From positions 5,520,001 through 5,584,000 of the forward strand of contig NC_045696.1 of the NCBI RefSeq assembly GCF_009834535.1: DNA of 64,000 bases, written 5' to 3'. Origin of the DNA: Camelus ferus. Its lineage: Eukaryota. The position numbers and the translations under genes are program-made. Position 1 is the stretch's first letter. Each line of letters opens with the position of its first letter. Below, in pieces: positions 34,365 to 46,965 of the stretch. The notes beneath the pieces were generated by a model, which worked only from the letters and a program-made list of their open reading frames with translations, had not been told where the DNA came from and did no database searches.

Positions 34365-36099
34365 AAAAGTGAAGCTGTCTGACCCCAAAATTCATGTTTA
34401 TATCTGTTATATTGTAATGTCTGCTTATGCTTTGGCACGACCAGAGAAACTTGAAAATCAGCTTTAACCAACTGTTTATACTTAAATTATAAAACACAAA
34501 GGGATAAAACAATGGGCTGTCAGCTTTTTGATACTGAAAAGTAGGTAAGAATACAGGTGACCTAATGCCTATAAATCTGTTTTGCAAATAACTTTTACTC
34601 AAGAGTTATGTTCAAACGACTTAGCAATTTCATGTCATGGTGGCCAATCAGTGGGAGTGGATGGTGGCGAAGACGTTGGAACCAGGTGGGGGAGGGCGGC
34701 CCTGCAGAGTTGGGTGCTAACCCTTTAGTTGCTGGGTCATGGGGCAGTGGAGAGGAGGGCGTCCCAGGAGGAGAGCCAGGGCAGGATACTATTTACCGAC
34801 TGCTGCAGAAGTATTTCAACACTTTGTTCATCAATATGAGCAACCCAGGGCATTCCAGCAAGGGCAGCCTGCTTCCAGCCCACTCTGTCCTCACTGTGGT
34901 GTGGGTGCCACACTGAACTCTGCAGAGACCCGTCTCCTGTATCTTACGCCCACTTGAAGAAGACAGATGGACATAAAGTCTTGAACACTGGATCCCACAA
35001 AACTCCCTTTTTTGCCCCGAAGATTCCCACGACTCAAGAGAAGAGCTCCAGAATACAGACTACCCAATGAACACGGTGGAAGAGTTCATTCTTGTCAATG
35101 AACACATGAAGTGCCAGGTGACTGGTCTAAACTTCCGCAAGGCGGCAGGGAGAATGAGTTTAATAGCAAAACGTTGACAACACAGGCAACCCAGGTGAAA
35201 ATTTAAACCCAGCTCATGATGGCCTTATTTTTAACAGTAAATGATGCCAAAAACAATCAGTGTCCCAGGGTTATGGGCTAACTCTTAGACGTCACTGCAG
35301 CAGGACCTAACCTGAAGGTCTCTGCTGATCCCAAAGAGGCTCTCTGGAGAATTTAAGGATTCTCCCACAGATTAGATCACGTTTGCTGTGTGGGAAGGGA
35401 CCAAAAATAGTAGGAACAAAGAAAACTGCCCTTTAGAGTCAAACAGAGGTTTGAATCCGAGGTCTACAACTTCCTAGTGTGTGTTCTAAGCAGGATGCTT
35501 AAGTTTTTGGAGCCTCTATTTCCCCAACTGGAAATAAACTTCTATAAAAATAACACTTAGGTCTTACAGCCATTGGAAGGATTAAATAAGACAATAAATG
35601 AAAAGTCCATTAAAGAGTATCTGGTATGTAGCAAACATTCAATAAATATGAGTTCCCTTTCCTGACCAAGAAATTCACTTCATGCTTGGGCTTAAGGCAC
35701 AGTGCTCTGGTTACAGAGGTGAATGAATGACAAGTACATTCTGTCCCTAACACCTACAATCAAATCTCCCTACTTGGTATTTACTCAAGAGAAATAAAAA
35801 CACTTGTGTACAGGGAGAGGCCAAGATGGTGGAGTAGAAGGGTGCTCATAGCTCACCCTCTCTCGCCGATACACCAAGACTCACATCCACGGACCCAGTC
35901 AGCCAATCAGAGCACTTGCAGAGCTCCGACAGAACATCGCCCTCTTCAAAAGACAAAGATGCCAAAAATCGGGTAGGAGAAAAGGAAAAAGGAAAGAAGA
36001 AAAGGCAAAACAGAGCAGGACAGGTCCTGCGGGGAGGGAGCAGCAAAGGAGGACTGGCGCTTGTTCGCTGGGTCTCCCCTCTCCAATGGAGAGGCCAGC

Positions 36100-37000
36100 G
36101 GGACAGAGGGGGAGCCTCCGAGGCTCGGATCTGTACGGAGCACCCCTTGACCGACAGAACTAAGTTAAACGGGCACATAGGGTCCCCGCGACACCCAGCC
36201 TGAGATGCAAGCCGGCAGCTGGGGGCCGGGACAGGCCGCCCCAGCCGGGCGGAGGACGGGGGCGGCTGCGCTGAGGCAGCCCTGGGGACTGCAGGGCGCT
36301 GTGAGCCGTGGATGAGAGGGTGCACAGGGCAGAACAACCTGGGCCCTCCATGAAACAGCACGGCTGATGTGCCCTTGGGGGTAAGGATGCACACCCCATC
36401 TCTGAAAACCTCCGGAAGGTTTTCGGGTAAAGAGAGACGGGGCTCAGGCACAGCCGCCATGACCTCCGCGCTGAGCACCCAGGCGGGGGCGGGGGCGAAA
36501 CCCGCATCCACACCTAAGGGCTCCGCAGCCTCAAGGGCCAGATGGAGACTCGTCTACAGCCCGAGGCAGGTAGGATCCTTCCGTCCTGGTACCTCAGAGA
36601 ATTCGAGTCACCAAGATAAACAAGGAGCTGGGGTTTGGCCATGAGCAGGGACAGGGCTGTTCCTCGGTCGTCCCCGAGCCCGCCTGCGGAGCGCCGACCC
36701 GGGGCGGAGCGCGCAGCGGCACAGAGCAGCGGAGCGACCGGCGCCGGGAGAGGGCGGGCGGCCCCCGCCTTGCGGGCAGGAAGGCAGCATCTGACCGCGT
36801 GCTGGGAGGGCGCGATCAGCCTGCCTGCTGAGCCAGTCTGCTGTGTCTGACTGCGGCATCGTGAGGGGCGGTGGCCCGCCCGTCCACAGCGAAGGAGAGC
36901 TGCACCTGACCCAGTGCTGGGAGGGGGCGCGATCTGCGTGCCGACCGGCACTGGAAGCAGCCCTGACGAGGGCGCCAACGGAGGGCCTCTGGAAACAGCA
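36100..37000. promoter_or_regulatory. CpG island within host L1 5'UTR
   Basis: 21 CpG counted by hand in 36661-36780; several GGGCGG boxes. Confidence 0.75.
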
Positions 37001-37236
37001 AGCTGAGCTTCCAAAACCGGACGAAGACAGAAAGACTTCTCATTAAGAGCACACAGTCTCCAGGAGAACACACCCCCGTTTATTTTAATCTGTTCTTACC
37101 TGTTCTATTTTCTGTTACCTTTTTAATTTTTACTTTTTAAACAATCATATATGCTTCCAGTTTTACTCCCTTTTAAATTTTTTCTTTTAAAATATTTTTT
37201 ATTATTATTTTTAAAAATCCATGTCATTTCATTTTT

Positions 37237-40200
37237 TTTAACTTTTTTTTTTATTCAGTAGTAGCTATTTTACAATGTTGTGTCAAATTCTACTGTAGAG
37301 CACAATTTTTCAGTCATACATGAACATGTATATATTCATTGTCACATTTTTTTTTACTATGAGCTACCACAAGATCTTGTATATTTTTCCCAGTGCTATA
37401 CAGTATAATCTTGTTTATCTATTCTGCATTTTAAAATACCAGTCTGTCCCTTCCCACTCCCCTCCCCCTTGGCAACCACAAGTTTGTATTTTATGTCTGA
37501 GTCTGTTTCTGTTTTGTATTTATGTTTTGGGATTTTTTTGTTGTTTTTTTTTTAAGATTCCTCTTATAAGCAATCTCATATGATATTTTTCTTTCTCTTT
37601 CTGGCTTACTTCACTTTGAATGACATTCTCCAGGAACATCCATGTTGCTGCAAATGGCGTTATGCTGTCAGTTTTTGTGGCTGAATAGTATTCCATCATA
37701 TAAATATAGCACCTCTTCTTTATCCATTTATCTGTTGATGGACTTTTAGGCTGTCTCCATGTCTTGGCTATTGTAAATAGTGCTGCTATGAATATTGGGG
37801 TGCAGGTGTCATTTGCAAGTAGGGTTCCTTCTGGATATATGCCCAGGAGTGGGATTCCTGGGTCACATGGTAAGTCTATTCCTAGTCTGTTGAGGAATCT
37901 CCCTGCTGTTTCCCACAGTGGCTTTCCTTGCTTCCCTCTCCCACTCTTGATGATTTAGATGTCTTCTTTTACAATTTTGTGTTTATTCTTTTTGTAATTC
38001 ATGGCAGTTATCTCCTTTCCAGTTATGAGTTTCTCATTTTTGTAGCATCCTGCTTCTTTTCTATTTAGAGTAGACCTGTCCATATTTCTTTTAGCATGGG
38101 TTTAGTGTTGCTAAACTCTTCTAGCATTTGCTTGTCTGTGAAGTTATCTCTCCTTCTATTCTAAAGGATAGCCTTGCTGGATAGAGTACCCTAGGCTGCA
38201 TGTTTTTTTCTTTCAGGACTTTGAATATATTTTGCCACTCCCTTCTGGCCTGTAGTGTTTGTGTAGACAAATCCGCTGAGAGCCTTATGGGGGTTCCCTT
38301 GTAACTCACTCTTTGTTTTTCTCTTGCGGCCTTTAGGATCATTTCTTTATCCTTGACTCTGGCCATCTTGATTATGATATGTCTTGGGGTGGGTCTGTCT
38401 GGGTTCTTCCTGTTTGGGACCCTCTGAGCCTCCTGTACTTGGATATCTGATTCCTTCTTTAGGTTTGGGAAGTTTTCAGTCATGATTTCTTCAAATACCT
38501 TTTCAATCCCCTTTTATCTTTCTTCCCCTTCTGGGACCCCCATTATGCGTAGATTGGTACACTTTATATTATCGTATAGGTTCTTTATATTGTTTTCATT
38601 GTTTTTCATTTGTTTTTCTCGCAGCTGTTCTGATTCGGTGCTTTCTGTTGTCCTGTCTTCTAGGTCACTTATTCGTTCCTCTGCATTATCCAGCCTGCTT
38701 TCCACAGCCTTTGGGTCAGCTCTCATCTCAGCAAATGAGTTTACTCATTCTACTTGGCTCTTCTTTATAGCTTCTATTTCATTTTTGACATATTTTATAT
38801 CTCTAAACACTATTTCTTTTAGTTCCTTCAGTACTTTGGTAACTTCTTTTTTGAAATCTTGATCTAGTAGGCCATCAATGTCTATGTCTTTGATTGTGCT
38901 TTCAGGGGATTTCCCTTGCTCTTTTAATTGGGAGTGGTTCCTCTGCTTCTTCATATTGCTCGTATCTCTCTGGCACTGTGGCTTAAGGAGTATCAGTTAT
39001 CTAGTTCTCCTGGAGACGATGTGCTCTTAATGATTTTCTCAAGAGGTCTTTGTGTCTTTGCCCTGTTTCACGAACTCAGCTTGCTGTTTCCAGAGGCCCT
39101 TTATTGGTGCCCTCATCCGTGCTGCTCCCAGTGGCTGACGGCTAGCAGATCATGCCCCCTCCCAACACTGGGTCAGGAGCTGAGCTCTTACCCGGTGGGC
39201 AGGCGGGTCACTGCCCCTCCCGATGCCGCAGTCAGATGCTGTGCTCAGGGGGAGGCAGGTGCGTGGATCACCCCTCCCAGCACCGTGGTCAGGTGCTGCG
39301 TTCCTGCCAGGAACTGGGGTGGCCGCACACCCTCTCCTGGTGCTAGTCACTCTGCTGCTCTGTGCAGCTGCCCACTCGGCCTCAGGTTGGCACTCTGTAG
39401 GCAGGCTTGGGGAAGACCACGGAACAGCTCTGCCCCTGCTCCATGCCAAATCTCATCTCCTTGTTTGTCTTGGTGGCGCAACTACTCTGAGGTGCCAGGG
39501 CAGAAAGATCCTATCTGCCACGGGCTGTAGACAAGTCTCAGTCCTGCCTAGGAGGTTCCGGAGCCCCCGGGTGCGGATTCAGGGCTCGGCTTGCCCCTGC
39601 CCGGGCGTGCGCACAGGAAGAGATGGCGGCTGTGGCTGCGCCCTGCCTCTCTTCTTGCAAGAAACACCAGTCTTGGGGGTGCAAGTCTGAAGAGACAAAG
39701 ACTACAGCGCACCTCCCTCCAGGGCACACCAGCCGTGTTGCTTTGCTTTTTTCGCAGTTTATGGGGGACCGAGGTTGTTCTGCTCCGTATCCCCTCCCAG
39801 TAACAGCGCACAGCCCCCTGCAGTCCCTGGGGGCTGCCTCAGTGCAGCCGCCCCAGTCCTCTACCCAGTTTGGGTAGCCTGTCCCAGCCCCAGCTGCCAA
39901 CTCACATCTCGGGCTGGGTGTCGTGTGCACCCTTTATACCTGTTTAACTCAGTTCTGTCGATCAAGGGGTGCTCAGGGCAGATCTGAGCCTCAGAAGCTC
40001 CCCTTCCATCCCGCTGGCCTCTCTGTTGGAGAGGGGAGACCCAGCGAGCGAGCGCCAGTCCTCCTTTCCCGCCCCCTCCCCGCAGGATTGGTCCCGCACT
40101 GTTTTGCTTTTTCTTCTTTCTTTTTTCCTTTTCTCCTACCAGATTTTTGGCGTCTTTGTCTTTCAACGACAGCAATGTTCTGTCGGAATTGAGCAGGTGC

Positions 40201-40300
40201 TCTGGTTGGCTGAATAGGCCTGTAATTGTGAGTTTTGGTGTATTTCTGGGAGAGGGTGAGCTACAAGCATCCTTCTACTCCGCCATCTTGCCCGATGGAG
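37237..40300 (-). mobile_element. Nested antisense L1 (~3.06 kb): 5'UTR + ORF1 + 3' end, ORF2 missing
   Basis: Perfect 19-bp TSD TCCATGTCATTTCATTTTT (37218-37236, 40301-40319); polyT at 37237; 5' end CAAGATGGCGG on the minus strand at 40280-40290. Confidence 0.93.
38121..38954 (-). pseudogene. L1 ORF1 (disrupted)
   Basis: MKKQRNHSQLK..., NLRIMGVPEGEE, ENFPNL, RPTPRHIIIK, IRLSADLS and ARREW..YPARLSF, split by a stop and frameshifts. Confidence 0.92.
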
Positions 40301-41009
40301 TCCATGTCATTTCATTTTTATTTCTCTTGGTTTTAATCTACTGTAATTGATTATACACAGGTTTCAAATATTTTTATCCTCTTTTCTCCTTTTTTAAAGG
40401 TTTTTAAAAGATGTCTCAACCCGATTGCTATTCTGCTTCAACTTGCTCTTCTATTATTCATTATAAACTGTTTTCAAATCTTTTTTTCTGCCTTCTTTTA
40501 AAATTCCCTCTTTATTTTTTTTATCTGTTCCATTTTCTATTACCTTTTTAATTTCTACTTTCTGAATAATTGTATATGTGTCCAGTTTTAATTCCTTTTA
40601 AACTTTTCTTTAAAGTAGTTATATTATTATTTTTTAAATCCACCTGATTTCATTTTCATTTCTTTTGATTTTCATCTCCTGTTATTGATTATACTCGGGT
40701 TTCAAATATTGTTTTTTTAATCTTTTTTCCTTTCTTTTAAGGGTTTTTAAAAAGACATTTCAACTCGATTGCTAGTCTGATTCAAATTGCTCTCTATTAT
40801 TGATTATACACTGTTTTCAAACCTTTCTTCTCCCTTCTTTTAAAATTCTCCTTCTCTCTCTCTCTCTCTCTTTTTTTTTTTAAGTTTTATTCCTACATAG
40901 GCATTAGATAGATAAATAAACTCCTTAAGGACGACAATAGATAACTGATACTCCATAAGCCACAGTGCCAGAGAGATATGAGCAAGATGAAGAAGCGGAG
41001 AAACCATTC

Positions 41010-44000
41010 CAAAGATTGAGAGTGAAAAGATGGAAGGGATATTCCATGCAAATGGAAAAGCAAAAACAGCAGGTGTAACAGTACTGATTTCAGACAAAAT
41101 AGACTTTAAAACAAAGGCCATAAAGTAAGATAAAGAAGGACATTTTATAATGAAAAAAAGAGTGATACAAGGTGAGGATATTACACTCATAAATATATAT
41201 GCACACAATATAGGAGTACCTAAGTACATAACATGATTACTAACAGAGATAAAGGGGGATATTGATGGGGATACAATCATTGTCTGAGATTTTAACACCA
41301 CATTAACATCACTAGACAGATCTTCCAGACAGAAAATAAATAAGGCAACAGAGAATCTAAATAATACAATAGAAAAATTAGATATGGTGGATATCTTCAA
41401 AGCATTACACTCCCCCCTAAAATAGGATATACATTCTTTCCAAGGGCACATGGAACATTTTCTAGGGTTGATCATGTACTTGGGCACAAAAGAAGCCTCA
41501 ACAATTTTAAGAAGATAGAAATGATCTGAAGCATCTTTACTGACCACAATGCCATGAAACTAGAAATCAACTACAGAGAAACAAAAGATAAAAAAAAAAG
41601 GAAAGCATGGAGATTAAACAACAATCTATTAAAAAATGAATGGTCAATGAAGAAATCAAAGTTGAAATTTAAAAAATACCTTGAGACAAATGAAAATGAA
41701 AACACCACCACACAAAATTTATGGGACACAGCAAAGGCAATGATGCAAGGGAAGTTTATAGCGATACAGGCCTTCCTCAAAAAAGAAGAACAATCTCAAA
41801 TCAACAATCTAACCCACCAACTAAAAGAACTAGAAAAAGAAGAGCAAAAGATCCCAAAAGGCAACAGAAGGAAGGAAATAACAAAGATCAGGGAGGAAAT
41901 ATACAAAATAGAGATTTTTAAAAACCATAGAAAAAAATCAAACCAAAGGCTGGTTTTTTAAAAAGTAGATAAAATCAACAAACCTCTAGCCAAACTCACA
42001 AAGAAAAAAGAGAGAGCACAAATAAGCAAAATAAGAAGGGAAAATTGAGAAATTACAACAAATAAAATAGAAATACAGAATATCATATGAGAATATTATG
42101 AAAAACTATATGAAACCAAGCTGGATAACCTAAAGGAGATGGACAAGTTTCTGGAAACATACAGCCCACCAAGACTGAACCAAGAAGAAACTGACCACTT
42201 GAACAAACTGATCACTAGAAATGAAATTGAATAAGCAATTAAAAAAAACTTCCCTACAAATGAAAGTACAGGACCAGACGGCTTCACTGGGGAATTCTAC
42301 CATACAAAGAATAACTCATACCAGTCCTTCTCAAACTCTTCCAGAACATTGAAAAGGAGGGAATACTCCCAAACTCATTCTATGAAGCCACAATCACCCT
42401 GATACCAAAACCAGGCAAAGACACTACCAAAAAAGAGAATTATAGGCCAATATCACTGATGAACATAGATGCAAAAATCCTCACCAAAATATTAGCAAAT
42501 AGAGTCCAGCTGACAATAAAAAAAAAATTATACATCATGACCAAGTGGGGTTCATGCCAGGGACACAAGGGTGGTTCAACATATGCAAATCAATCAATAT
42601 AATACATCACATCAACAAGAAAAAGGACAAAAACCATATGATCATCTCAATAGATGCAGAAAAACCATTTGATAAAATTCAACACCCATTTATGACAAAA
42701 ATTCTGACCAAAGCGGGTATACAGGGAACATATCTCAACATAATAAAAGCTATATATGACAAACATACAGCCAGCATAGTACTCAACGGTGAAAAACTCA
42801 AAACCTTCCCACTAAAATCTGGGACAAGAAAAGGCTACCCACTATCACCACTCCTATTCAACATAGTCTTGGAAGTCCTAGCCACAGCAATCAGGCAAGA
42901 GAGAGAAATAAAAGGGATCCAAACTGGAAAAGAAGAGGTAAAGTGTCACTATATGCCGATGACATGTTACTGTATATAGAAAACCCTAAAAGGTCCACAC
43001 AAAAACTACTAGAACTGATCGAAGAATTCAGCAAGGTAGCAGGTTACAAGATTAACGTTCAAACATCAGTGGCATTTCTTTACACTAACAATGAATCAAC
43101 AGAAAAAGAAAGTAAAGAAACAATCCCCTTTAAAATAGCACCTGAAGTAACAAGATACCTAGGAATAAATCTAACCAAGGAGGTGAAAGAATTACATACA
43201 GAAAACTATAAACCATTGATGAAGGAAATTAAAGAAGACTTTAAAAAATGGAAAGATATCCCACGCTCTTGGATTGGAAGAATCAATATTGTCAAAATGG
43301 TCACACTGCCCAAGGCAATCTACAAATTTAATGCAATCCCTATCAAATTACCCAGGACGTATTTCACAGAACTAGAACAAAGCATTATAAAATTTATATG
43401 GGGCCACAAAAGACCTAAAATTGCTAATCACTACTGAAGGAAAAGAAAGAGGCTGGAGGAATAACTCTCCGAGACTTCAGACAATCCTATAGAGCTACAG
43501 TCATCAAGACAGCATGGTATTCATACAAAAACAGACATATAGATCAATGGAATAGAGAGCCCAGAAATGAACTCACAAACTTTTGGTCAACTCATCTTTG
43601 ACAAAGGAGGCAAGAATATACAATGGAATAAAGACAGTCTCTTCAGCAAATGCTGTTGGGAAAACTGGACAGCAGCATGTAAAGCAATGAAGCTACAACA
43701 TTCCCTTATACCATACACAAAAATAAACTCAAAATGGATCAAAGACTTAAACATAAGACAAGATACAATAAACCTCCTAGAAGAAAATATAGGCAAAACA
43801 TTATCTGACACACATCTCAAAAATGTTCTCCTAGAACAGTCTACCCAAGCAATAGAAATAAAAGCAAGAATAAACAAATGGGACCTAATGAAACTTACAA
43901 GCTTCTGCACACCAAAGAAAACCATAAGTAAAACAAGAAGACAACCTACAGAATGGGAGAAAATGTTTGCAAATGTAACCGACAAATTCTTGATCTCCAG

Positions 44001-44337
44001 AATATATAAGCAGCTCATACGACTTAATACAAAAGACACAAACAACCCAATCCAAAAATGGGCAGAAGACCTAAACAAGCAACTCTCCAAGGAAGAAATA
44101 CAAATGATCAATAGGCACATGAAAAAATGTTCAAAATCACTAATTATCAGAGAAATGCAAATCAAAACTACAATGAGGTATCACCTCACACCAGTCAGAA
44201 TGGCCATCATACAAAAATCCACAAATGATAAATGCTGGAGAGGCTGTGGAGAAAAGGGAACCCTCCTACACTGCTGGTGGGAATGCAGTTTGGTGCAGCC
44301 ACTGTGGAAGACAGTATGGAGATTCTCAAAAGACTAG
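41010..44337 (+). pseudogene. L1 ORF2 (EN/RT), with multiple stops and frameshifts
   Basis: Fragments in the ORF track at 41554-41961, 42545-42979, 42943-43437 and 43567-44337 lie in different frames. Confidence 0.93.
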
Positions 44338-45384
44338 GAATAGACTTACCGTATGACCCAGGAATCCCGCTCCTGGGTATGTATCAGAAGGAACCCTACT
44401 TCAAAATGACACCTGCATCCCAATATTCATAGCAGCACTATTTACAATAGCCAAGACATGGAGACAGCCTAAAAGTCCATCAACAGATAAATGGATAAAG
44501 AAGAGGTGGTATATTCATACAATGGAATAGTATTCAGCCATAAAAACCGACAACATAACACCATTTGCAGCAACATGGATGTTCCTGGAGAATGTCATTC
44601 AAAGTGAAGTAAGCCAGAAACAGAAAGAAAAATACCATATGAGATTGCTCAAATGTGGAATCTAAAAAAAACCAAAACATAAATACAAAAAGGAAACAGA
44701 CTCATAGAACACAAACTTACGGTTGCCAAGGTGGCGGGGGGGTGGGAAGGGATAGACTGGGGTTTCAAAATGTAGAATAGATAAACAAGGTTATACTGTA
44801 TAGCACAGGGAAATATACACAAGATCTTATGGTAACTTACAGAGAAAAAAAAAGTGACAATGAATATATATATGTTCATGTATAGCTGAAAAATTGTGCT
44901 CTACACTGGAATTTGACACAACATTGTAAAATGATTATAAATCAATAAAAATGTTATAAAAAAAAAACTAGTGTACGAAAAGTCTTCTCCATAAAAATTT
45001 ATGGCAGCTTTTATCAAAATAGCCAGAAACTAGAAATGACTCAGATGCCCATTAACAGATAGATAAAGAAACAAATTACCAGAGGATAATCCCATATTCA
45101 GCAACAGAAGGGTACAAACCAACATGGATGAATCTCCAAAACATTTCCAAGAGGGAAGGAAGCCAGACAAAGAGAAAATAGCTGTTTTCCTCATTTATCT
45201 GAAGTTCTAGACAAGGAACTCAATGGAGTCAGAAAGCAGAGTGGTGGTTGCCTGTGGATGGGCTGGAAGGCAAAGGAATGCAAGAGAATGTACCCGGTGA
45301 TAGAAATGTTCTGATCTTGATGGACAGAGGTGTTGGACATGAGTAAGCACATTTCTCAGAACTCATCAAACAATTAACATTGGT

Positions 45385-46965
45385 GCCGTGGTTATAATAT
45401 GAAATACATCTGGTCTTTATCTGCAATTCCTGGAACAGAGCTCCTGAGACCCTTGGAACTCCATTAGTGATAAGAGATAGGAATGTTTTTGTATATCTGG
45501 TCTTTATCTGCAATTCCTGGCACAGAGCTCCTGAGACCCTTGGAACTTCCTAGTGATAGGACACAGGAGTGACTTTGTTATTCATAAGGAGCCCGTTTGG
45601 ATCATCAGATAACTGGGGAAGGGGGAGAGGTGTGGGGGGAGTTTAGGTGGCTTCAGGTTGAGAGTTGGTTTCCAGGAAAACCAACCTTGTGATGAGAAGG
45701 TTAAACGGATCAGCACCACCTGCCCCATCTTCCAGGAAGGGAGAGGAGCTGAAGATTATGTTCATTCACCCACCTAATGATTTAATCACGTGAGCCCACA
45801 CAAAGAAACCTTGATTTTAAAAAGAGGAAAAGTGTTTTCCCTCCCTTGCCATGAGACAATTTGCTTGTGGCTCCCCATGGTTGCAGACCTGGTATTGCAA
45901 TTCTCTGTTAGCCCTAAAATGAACCCATTTTTTACTGAAATGAATGAATCCTGAAATAAATCCATTTCTTGCTGGAATAAATGAATGAAAGTTAGGGGAA
46001 GCTTCCCAGTTGCTGAGCATGTCAGTGAACTGGGAGGGTGGTGTCTTCCTGCTCCACAGGGACAGAGGCACCTGTGCAGGTTCCTGAACAAAAACGTTTG
46101 TGTGCTGGACACAGAGTGAGGCCAAACAAACCAAACCATTGGAGTCTGGAGCAGAGAAAAGTTTACTGTGATTCTGAGCAAGGAGAATGGGTAGCTCATG
46201 CTCGAAAACCCTGAACTCCACAATGCTTTTCGGGGGAGAAGTTTCTATAGGCAAAATTTGGGGTGGGGGCTGCCAGTTGTGTTTCTTCTGATTGGCTGGT
46301 GGGGAGATAACAGGGCTGGTACTCCAGGAACCTTGTGCTCAGCCTGAAGTTGCCATCCTCCACGTGGGTGGGGGCCTTAGTTCCTGCAGAAGATCTCAGA
46401 GATACAGTTAAGTATGTTCCTTGAGGAGGAACCAGGACCCTGCCCAAGGCTGCACTGTTGTTTCTTGACTGCTCCTCCCTTGTCTCTGCGTTCCCTCCCT
46501 TCCGTGATTAGCAACTGTGTGAAGCTGCCCCTTGGAACTCAGGGAAGGTCAAGGAGGCTGAAGGAAGCCTATGTCCTACTAACAAGAAGTGGAGGACATG
46601 GAAAGGATCTGTACGAGGGAGGACCCCACGGGGTCCTGCTCTGTTGCATGCTCAGGACCCTTCTCTGTATGGCTGGTCATTTGTACCTTAAATAATGGAT
46701 TATGTGTATTGTGCTTCACTGAGTTCTGTGAGTCATTTTAGCAAATTGTCAAGCCTGGGGCAGGGCAGGGGGAATGTCTTGATTTGTAGTCCTCCAGACA
46801 GAAATGCAGAAAGCTTGGGGCCCCCATTTTCAGCTGGCATCTGAAGTTGGGGCAGTCTTATGGGACTGAGCCCTTAACCTGGAGGATCTGAGCTAACCCC
46901 TGGGGTTAGTGTCAGAATTGAATTGTAAGACATCCCGCTAGTGTCAGAAAATTGGAGAACCGGCT
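45385..46965 (+). mobile_element. MER21-like LTR with internal tandem duplication and nested LTR pieces
   Basis: TCTGGTCTTTATCTGCAATTCCTGG.ACAGAGCTCCTGAGACCCTTGGAACT occurs twice (~45409 and ~45496). The 3' part GGCATCTGAAGTTGGGGCAGTCTTATGGGACTGAGCCCTTAACC..GTCAGAATTGAATT resumes after the inserts. Confidence 0.65.
46075..46645 (-). mobile_element. ERV1 LTR nested in MER21-like element
   Basis: GTGAGGCCAAACAAACC..TGGAGCAGAGAAAAGTTTA..GCTCATGCTCGAAA..CCCTTGGAACTCAGGGAAGGTCA motifs typical of laurasiatherian ERV1 LTRs. Confidence 0.65.

Follow-up and report, generated by a model that had tools for sequence, protein, structure and literature searches.

An internally deleted L1 nested in the 5'UTR of an older L1 of Camelus ferus, with an AG at its deletion junction

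A nested L1 and the older L1 that received it

The window analysed here, a stretch of 64,000 nucleotides of Camelus ferus (NCBI RefSeq assembly GCF_009834535.1, contig NC_045696.1, positions 5,520,001 to 5,584,000 of the forward strand), contains an L1 element of 3,064 bp that occupies positions 37237-40300 of the minus strand and lies nested inside an older L1 (Table 1). Its membership of L1 follows from the homology of both reading frames, namely ORF1 (Pfam PF02994 and PF17490, with a weak match to PF17489) and the tail of ORF2, identical to protein P0001 at 102 of 122 residues (84%). We call the element camelid because the source name of this protein is Camelus dromedarius LINE-1 ORF2 protein. 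The initial annotation of the locus had described an ORF1-only, HAL1-like architecture, and this description agrees with what we find: ORF1 is present, ORF2 is gone save for 122 codons, and both ends are kept. It is a real structure and, most likely, a broken copy of a common kind. Judging from its reading frames, with ORF1 broken and ORF2 absent, this copy would do nothing now.

The element entered by TPRT into a T-rich tract within the 5'UTR of the older L1. This is well supported because it has an exact TSD, a TTTTT/A site, a poly(A) tail and its 5' end. TPRT had already been deduced from a 19-bp TSD at a TTTTT/A site and a poly(A), and our data bear this out. The 19 bp are the longest exact word common to both flanks and occur in two copies only within the window, whereas about 500 pairs of randomly chosen 60-bp windows shared no word longer than 10 bp; the nick at the insertion site reads TTTTT/A, and an AATAAA signal with an A-rich tail is present. 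Once rebuilt, the empty site gives an unbroken, co-linear alignment with a paralogous unit of the T-rich tandem block of the host L1. The 5' end, which had been described as intact, does align with the 5' end of the host, starting at base 8 of the insert, but its first seven bases do not. These seven letters (40294-40300, minus strand), located between the TSD and the start of that alignment, may be untemplated or represent a different subfamily start. An inversion between host and insert is ruled out by the direct TSD copies and by the co-linearity of the empty site with the paralogous unit.

Table 1. Coordinates of the nested L1, its target-site copies and the surrounding host L1 in the window
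Feature	Position	Strand	Remarks
Host L1: 5'UTR and first part of T-rich block (insertion target)	35813..37236	+	
TSD, copy at element 3' end	37218..37236	.	19 bp, exact match to 40301-40319
AATAAA signal and A-rich tail	37237..37255	-	AATAAA at 37255-37250
L1 3'UTR (bounds approximate)	37256..37553	-	Similarity to host
Retained ORF2 tail, 122 codons	37554..37921	-	No stop or frameshift inside
Deletion junction	37921..37923	-	AG at 37923-37922; about 3.7 kb missing
Inter-ORF spacer remnant	37922..38064	-	Aligns with spacer of relatives L009-L014
ORF1, dead	38065..38963	-	ACG at first start, two premature stops, one frameshift
5'UTR, complete at 5' end	38964..40300	-	Without the 785-bp T-rich block of the host, at 39004/39003
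TSD, copy at element 5' end	40301..40319	.	19 bp, exact match to 37218-37236
Host L1: rest of T-rich block and ORF1 stub	40320..41012	+	Stub spans about 11 codons, starting at 40978
Host L1: ORF2 from about codon 52 onward and 3'UTR	41013..44960	+	Acceptor-like AG at 44297-44298

The host L1 has a degraded TSD (35796-35812 and 44961-44977, 14 of 17 positions matching), and its 5' end and tail are also present. At about 41012/41013, its ORF1 stub of about 11 codons is joined directly to the ORF2 endonuclease domain. This region (40978-41014) is the mirror case of the insert, with about 1.4 kb gone, which comprises almost the whole of ORF1, the spacer and some 51 codons of ORF2. Before ORF1, the host 5'UTR carries a T-rich block of 785 bp (51% T; 37070-37236 and 40320-40937 of the window) built of tandem units of roughly 330 bp that are 81-83% alike. 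The block is missing from the insert and from two relatives, L001 and L009, and, because these relatives are also devoid of it, the comparison suggests that the difference may be a gain in the host lineage rather than a loss by the insert. Just past the host 3' end, we observed a tandem duplication of about 88 bp with 87.5% identity (45405-45578).

Within the insert, ORF1 has ACG in the place of its first start codon (38963), stops in the codons starting at 38747 and 38516, and a frameshift near 38140-38146. Its best 2 matches among the 120 listed are the unnamed proteins P0004 and P0005, at 83-85% identity, the former being an intact relative of 300 aa. The spacer remnant can be aligned to relatives L009-L014 up to 5 nt or less from the junction, with 71% identity over ORF1 and spacer, and is genuine family sequence. 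Another copy, P0125, is 85% identical and has the same terminal stop, 36 nt before the junction. An ATG-started frame of 15 codons in the spacer (37958-38002, minus strand) ends at a stop common to P0125, whose residue at the start position is not Met. On the other side of the junction, the whole 3' part shares 90% identity with the host over aligned columns (87% by blastn with gaps), and the decay of the ORF2 tail is not above that of the host (84% identity to P0001, against 77-83% for the host). The 5'UTR is 79% identical to that of the host over aligned columns and has fewer CpG (46 against 84). CpG retention is higher in the older host promoter (35819-37069; o/e 0.66) than in the nested one (39004-40293; o/e 0.42), and 41 host CpG are TG or CA in the insert, against 10 in the reverse direction.

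The deletion junction and the AG at its edge

On the minus strand, the join reads ...GGGAAGCAAGGAAAG|CCACTGTGGG..., position 37922 being the G and 37921 the first C, whereas its host counterpart reads GTTTGGTGCAG|CCACTG, where the AG occupies 44297-44298 and the C follows at 44299. Direct reading of both copies confirmed the coordinates previously assigned to the junction (37922/37921) and to the host AG|CCACTG. The spacer side of the join in the insert ends ...GGAAGCAAGGAA. The AG had been taken as lying upstream of the break; it is indeed present in the joined sequence, but the match between insert and host begins at its A, so that three registers are possible and the AG may come from either side. 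The sequence shared at the join amounts to 0-2 nt. As the host L1 is internally deleted, the window does not contain the donor side of this junction. The size of the lost block, derived from relatives L001 and L009 for the spacer and from the host for ORF2, is 244-286 nt of spacer plus 153 + 3286 nt of ORF2 (about 3,440), totalling about 3.7 kb.

The junction had initially been attributed to probable splicing. In the simplest version, a SpIRE-like event, a cryptic donor in the spacer would have been joined to the CAG equivalent to host positions 44296-44298, and the resulting RNA, devoid of ORF2, would have been inserted in trans. We consider such a one-off spliced copy quite unlikely. Taking the AG as upstream places the join immediately behind CAG, and the AG would speak for splicing only in this register and if GT followed it. 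About half of exons end in AG (consensus MAG|GURAGU), AAG being a typical exon end. Among 200,000 random deletions simulated per left partner (the spacer of L001 or L009) with the host ORF2 as right partner, the shared block started with AG in 8.6% and a GT-AG register was available in 0.2-0.3%. By itself, such an AG would be expected about six times more often from splicing than from a random deletion (half of exons against 8.6%).

The quality of the would-be acceptor argues in the opposite direction. Only 6 of its 16 upstream letters are pyrimidines, a competing CAG lies 10 nt upstream, and 81 of the 109 YAG sites of the host ORF2 equal or exceed it in score, the score being a plain pyrimidine count on the host copy, from which the parent sequence may differ, and not the output of a trained splice model. 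A plausible acceptor in the sense used for SpIREs, with a pyrimidine tract and no competing AG, is absent from the host copy by this count; in one of the three registers, the 3' breakpoint would lie directly after an AG, the position expected of a SpIRE. The relatives are divided about the donor. The spacer of L001 (L001:2128-2140) contains a donor-like GAG|GTAAAT within 2 alignment columns of the breakpoint column of the insert, whereas none of L009-L014 has GT at that column in the spacer alignment. With 98.6-99.7% mutual identity, L009-L014 amount to a single relative, which makes two independent distant relatives in all, and at only 71-74% identity to the insert neither L001 nor L009-L014 can represent its parent.

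Two other junctions in the window provide controls. At the ORF1-to-ORF2 junction of the host, the right-hand block also begins with AG, and there is no GT at the matching left position in the ORF1 of the insert; the T-block junction begins with TAG, and the left side in the host reads ACACC, not GT. AG is thus found at all three visible junctions and the donor is missing at both of those with a visible left side, with the qualification that the left partners in the two controls are each other's subfamily instead of true parents and that the T-block may be a host gain. A splice origin of the host deletion or of the T-block difference was rejected, there being no GT on the visible left side. TSD and poly(A) tell how an element entered, not when or how its middle was lost. 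The host displays these hallmarks as well, along with a large internal deletion and an AG at the beginning of its right-hand block, and has no GT at its left breakpoint. SpIREs likewise bear TSD, poly(A) and endonuclease sites and make up about 2% of human full-length insertions, but the accessible text of the same source describes no spacer-to-ORF2 SpIRE (PMC5860796), and an RNA without ORF2 would in addition require trans-complementation. With a weak acceptor, an AG pattern that random deletions also generate, and the recurrence of AG at junctions without donors, "probable" overstates the case: weighing base rate, acceptor, controls, relatives and the prior from SpIREs, we regard splicing as possible, not probable, and on the whole unlikely even when a spliced family is included.

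How the middle of the element may have been lost

The explanation that we favour, with about an even chance of being right, is a one-off copy of an ordinary camelid L1 subfamily, internally deleted through microhomology. In this reading, it was a full-length L1 RNA that TPRT inserted into the T-rich tract in the 5'UTR of the older L1. What the insert has demonstrably lost, about 3.7 kb between the spacer and the final 122 ORF2 codons, would have gone via a join with 0-2 nt shared, a route that we infer. The removal could have occurred during insertion, if cDNA synthesis halted at a length of about 685 nt and resumed further upstream on the same template, or by a deletion in DNA after insertion, two options that are indistinguishable here. 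The decay that later broke ORF1 would have been neutral. Internally deleted L1 insertions are known to carry microhomology joins formed at or after insertion. Like them, the insert is co-linear, its ends are normal and 0-2 letters are shared at the borders of its gap, and the same is true of the host L1.

The case for a one-off deletion leans on base rates and on the two controls. The ORF2 tail, no more decayed than that of the host, is as expected if it was cut directly from an autonomous L1, although this is a weak argument; the intactness of the 122-codon tail, with a probability of 0.30 at the lesion rate of ORF1, is also weak evidence. Against a one-off deletion we count the AG pattern, likelier under splicing, the GAG|GTAAAT of L001 near the breakpoint, and the existence of a second large block difference (the T-block) together with a 5'UTR that is only 79% identical to the host (90% at the 3' end) and poorer in CpG, as a separate lineage would be.

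These last traits would also suit a copy of a camelid non-autonomous ORF1-only (HAL1-like) family, whose master without ORF2 would have been copied in trans by the ORF2p of autonomous L1s, the founding deletion being of any kind. We judge this origin somewhat unlikely. 5'-complete insertion is commoner for short templates; the element is 5'-complete, and its 5'UTR, distinct from that of the host and CpG-poor, fits a separate lineage. Its architecture matches the definition of HAL1 (PMC5753468, in its accessible text), and families of this type are stated to have arisen repeatedly, for example with about 7,500 copies in rat (PMC2241872, likewise). On the other hand, the ORF2 tail shows no excess decay and is 90% identical to the host L1. 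That a HAL1-type family was founded by splicing, from a donor in the spacer to an acceptor near the end of ORF2, which would take out the enzyme gene alone and leave promoter, ORF1 and 3' end whole, seems very unlikely.

The uneven divergence from the host, with transversions affecting 97 of the 1,246 5'UTR columns and 21 of the 652 columns of the 3' end, and the head without the T-rich block would also be compatible with a chimera of two RNAs formed by template switching, in which an autonomous L1 near the host subfamily supplied the 3' 685 nt and another subfamily, or the head of a half-L1 family, the 5' 2.4 kb. However, L1 5'UTRs get replaced and change between subfamilies anyway (PMC5753468, in its accessible text), and a chimera appears very unlikely to us. 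Twin priming is ruled out, as no part of the insert is inverted: relative to the host, its three blocks are all in plus/plus alignment. The deletions associated with it accompany 5' inversion and measure 14.5 bp in the median, according to the accessible text of 10.1101/2024.08.27.596794, unlike the insert, which has no inversion and a gap of about 3.7 kb.

Known half-L1s and SpIREs, and the search for relatives

HAL1 elements were reportedly described as non-autonomous L1 derivatives by Smit in 1999 and by Bao and Jurka in 2010. The accessible texts of PMC5753468 and PMC2241872 define HAL1 as half-L1, and those of PMC13756887 and PMC4859970 mention it. Like HAL1, the insert has a 5'UTR, ORF1, a poly(A) tail and no functional ORF2, and any mobility would have to come via ORF2p in trans. 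Unlike HAL1, which forms families of repeated copies, the insert is known from one copy, its ORF1 is dead, and it keeps 122 ORF2 codons and the 3'UTR of its own parent. The SpIREs of Larson et al. 2018, as far as the accessible text goes, all use a single donor in the 5'UTR, G98U99, and acceptors that lie in either the 5'UTR or ORF1, and they are viewed as dead ends (PMC5860796). Like them, the insert is an L1 that is complete at its 5' end, is interrupted by an internal gap and has a TSD, poly(A) and an endonuclease site. It differs in that SpIREs lose promoter sequence and keep ORF2, whereas the insert keeps promoter and ORF1 and loses ORF2, and its donor is hypothetical. Literature searches listed no publication that deals with a camelid HAL1 or with a SpIRE joining spacer to ORF2, and a named family may exist in repeat databases such as Repbase or Dfam. 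L1-2_Vpa is a name given in the accessible text of PMC6726744, and that of PMC8605555 mentions neither ORF1 nor ORF2.

A one-off deleted copy would be of minor importance but would still carry a warning: splicing is not demonstrated by a TSD, poly(A) and an AG at the join, and the adjoining host element is the control for this. If, by contrast, the junction were GT-AG and repeated, it would show one concrete way in which L1 can give rise to HAL1, and would constitute an exception to what the accessible text of PMC5860796 conveys, namely that spliced L1s are dead ends. Were a splice-born half-L1 family to exist, such a copy could spread as a parasite of L1, unlike human SpIREs.

Searches of viral, metagenome, GTDB, plasmid and phage collections retrieved no camelid spacer DNA beyond the breakpoint. 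In viral_contigs, a 22-letter spacer pattern had no occurrence, and neither the C-terminal 120 aa of ORF1 (0 of 22 candidates) nor the host ORF2 piece (0 of 10) found a match; blastn with ORF1 plus spacer gave a single 65-bp match in plasmids, which we take as chance, and none in phages. A protein search across the junction yielded three candidates, all of which match the ORF2 side only. This search is uninformative, since no fused protein is expected given the stop 36 nt before the junction that is shared with P0125. An ORF2 C-terminal fusion protein was rejected on account of that same upstream stop. Among the 24 public sequencing runs listed, the best holders, from four organisms, share 0.49-0.56 of 106 words, a result that we do not count as evidence. 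With the C-terminal 120 aa of ORF1, 14 loci were recovered from metagenome_contigs (best protein identity 78-80%), none of them near enough in the spacer to be the parent, and two from genome_contigs, of 260 and 490 bp. These two (L015 and L016) are low-coverage contigs of Streptococcus assemblies that encode a mammalian L1 ORF1 and probably represent contamination.
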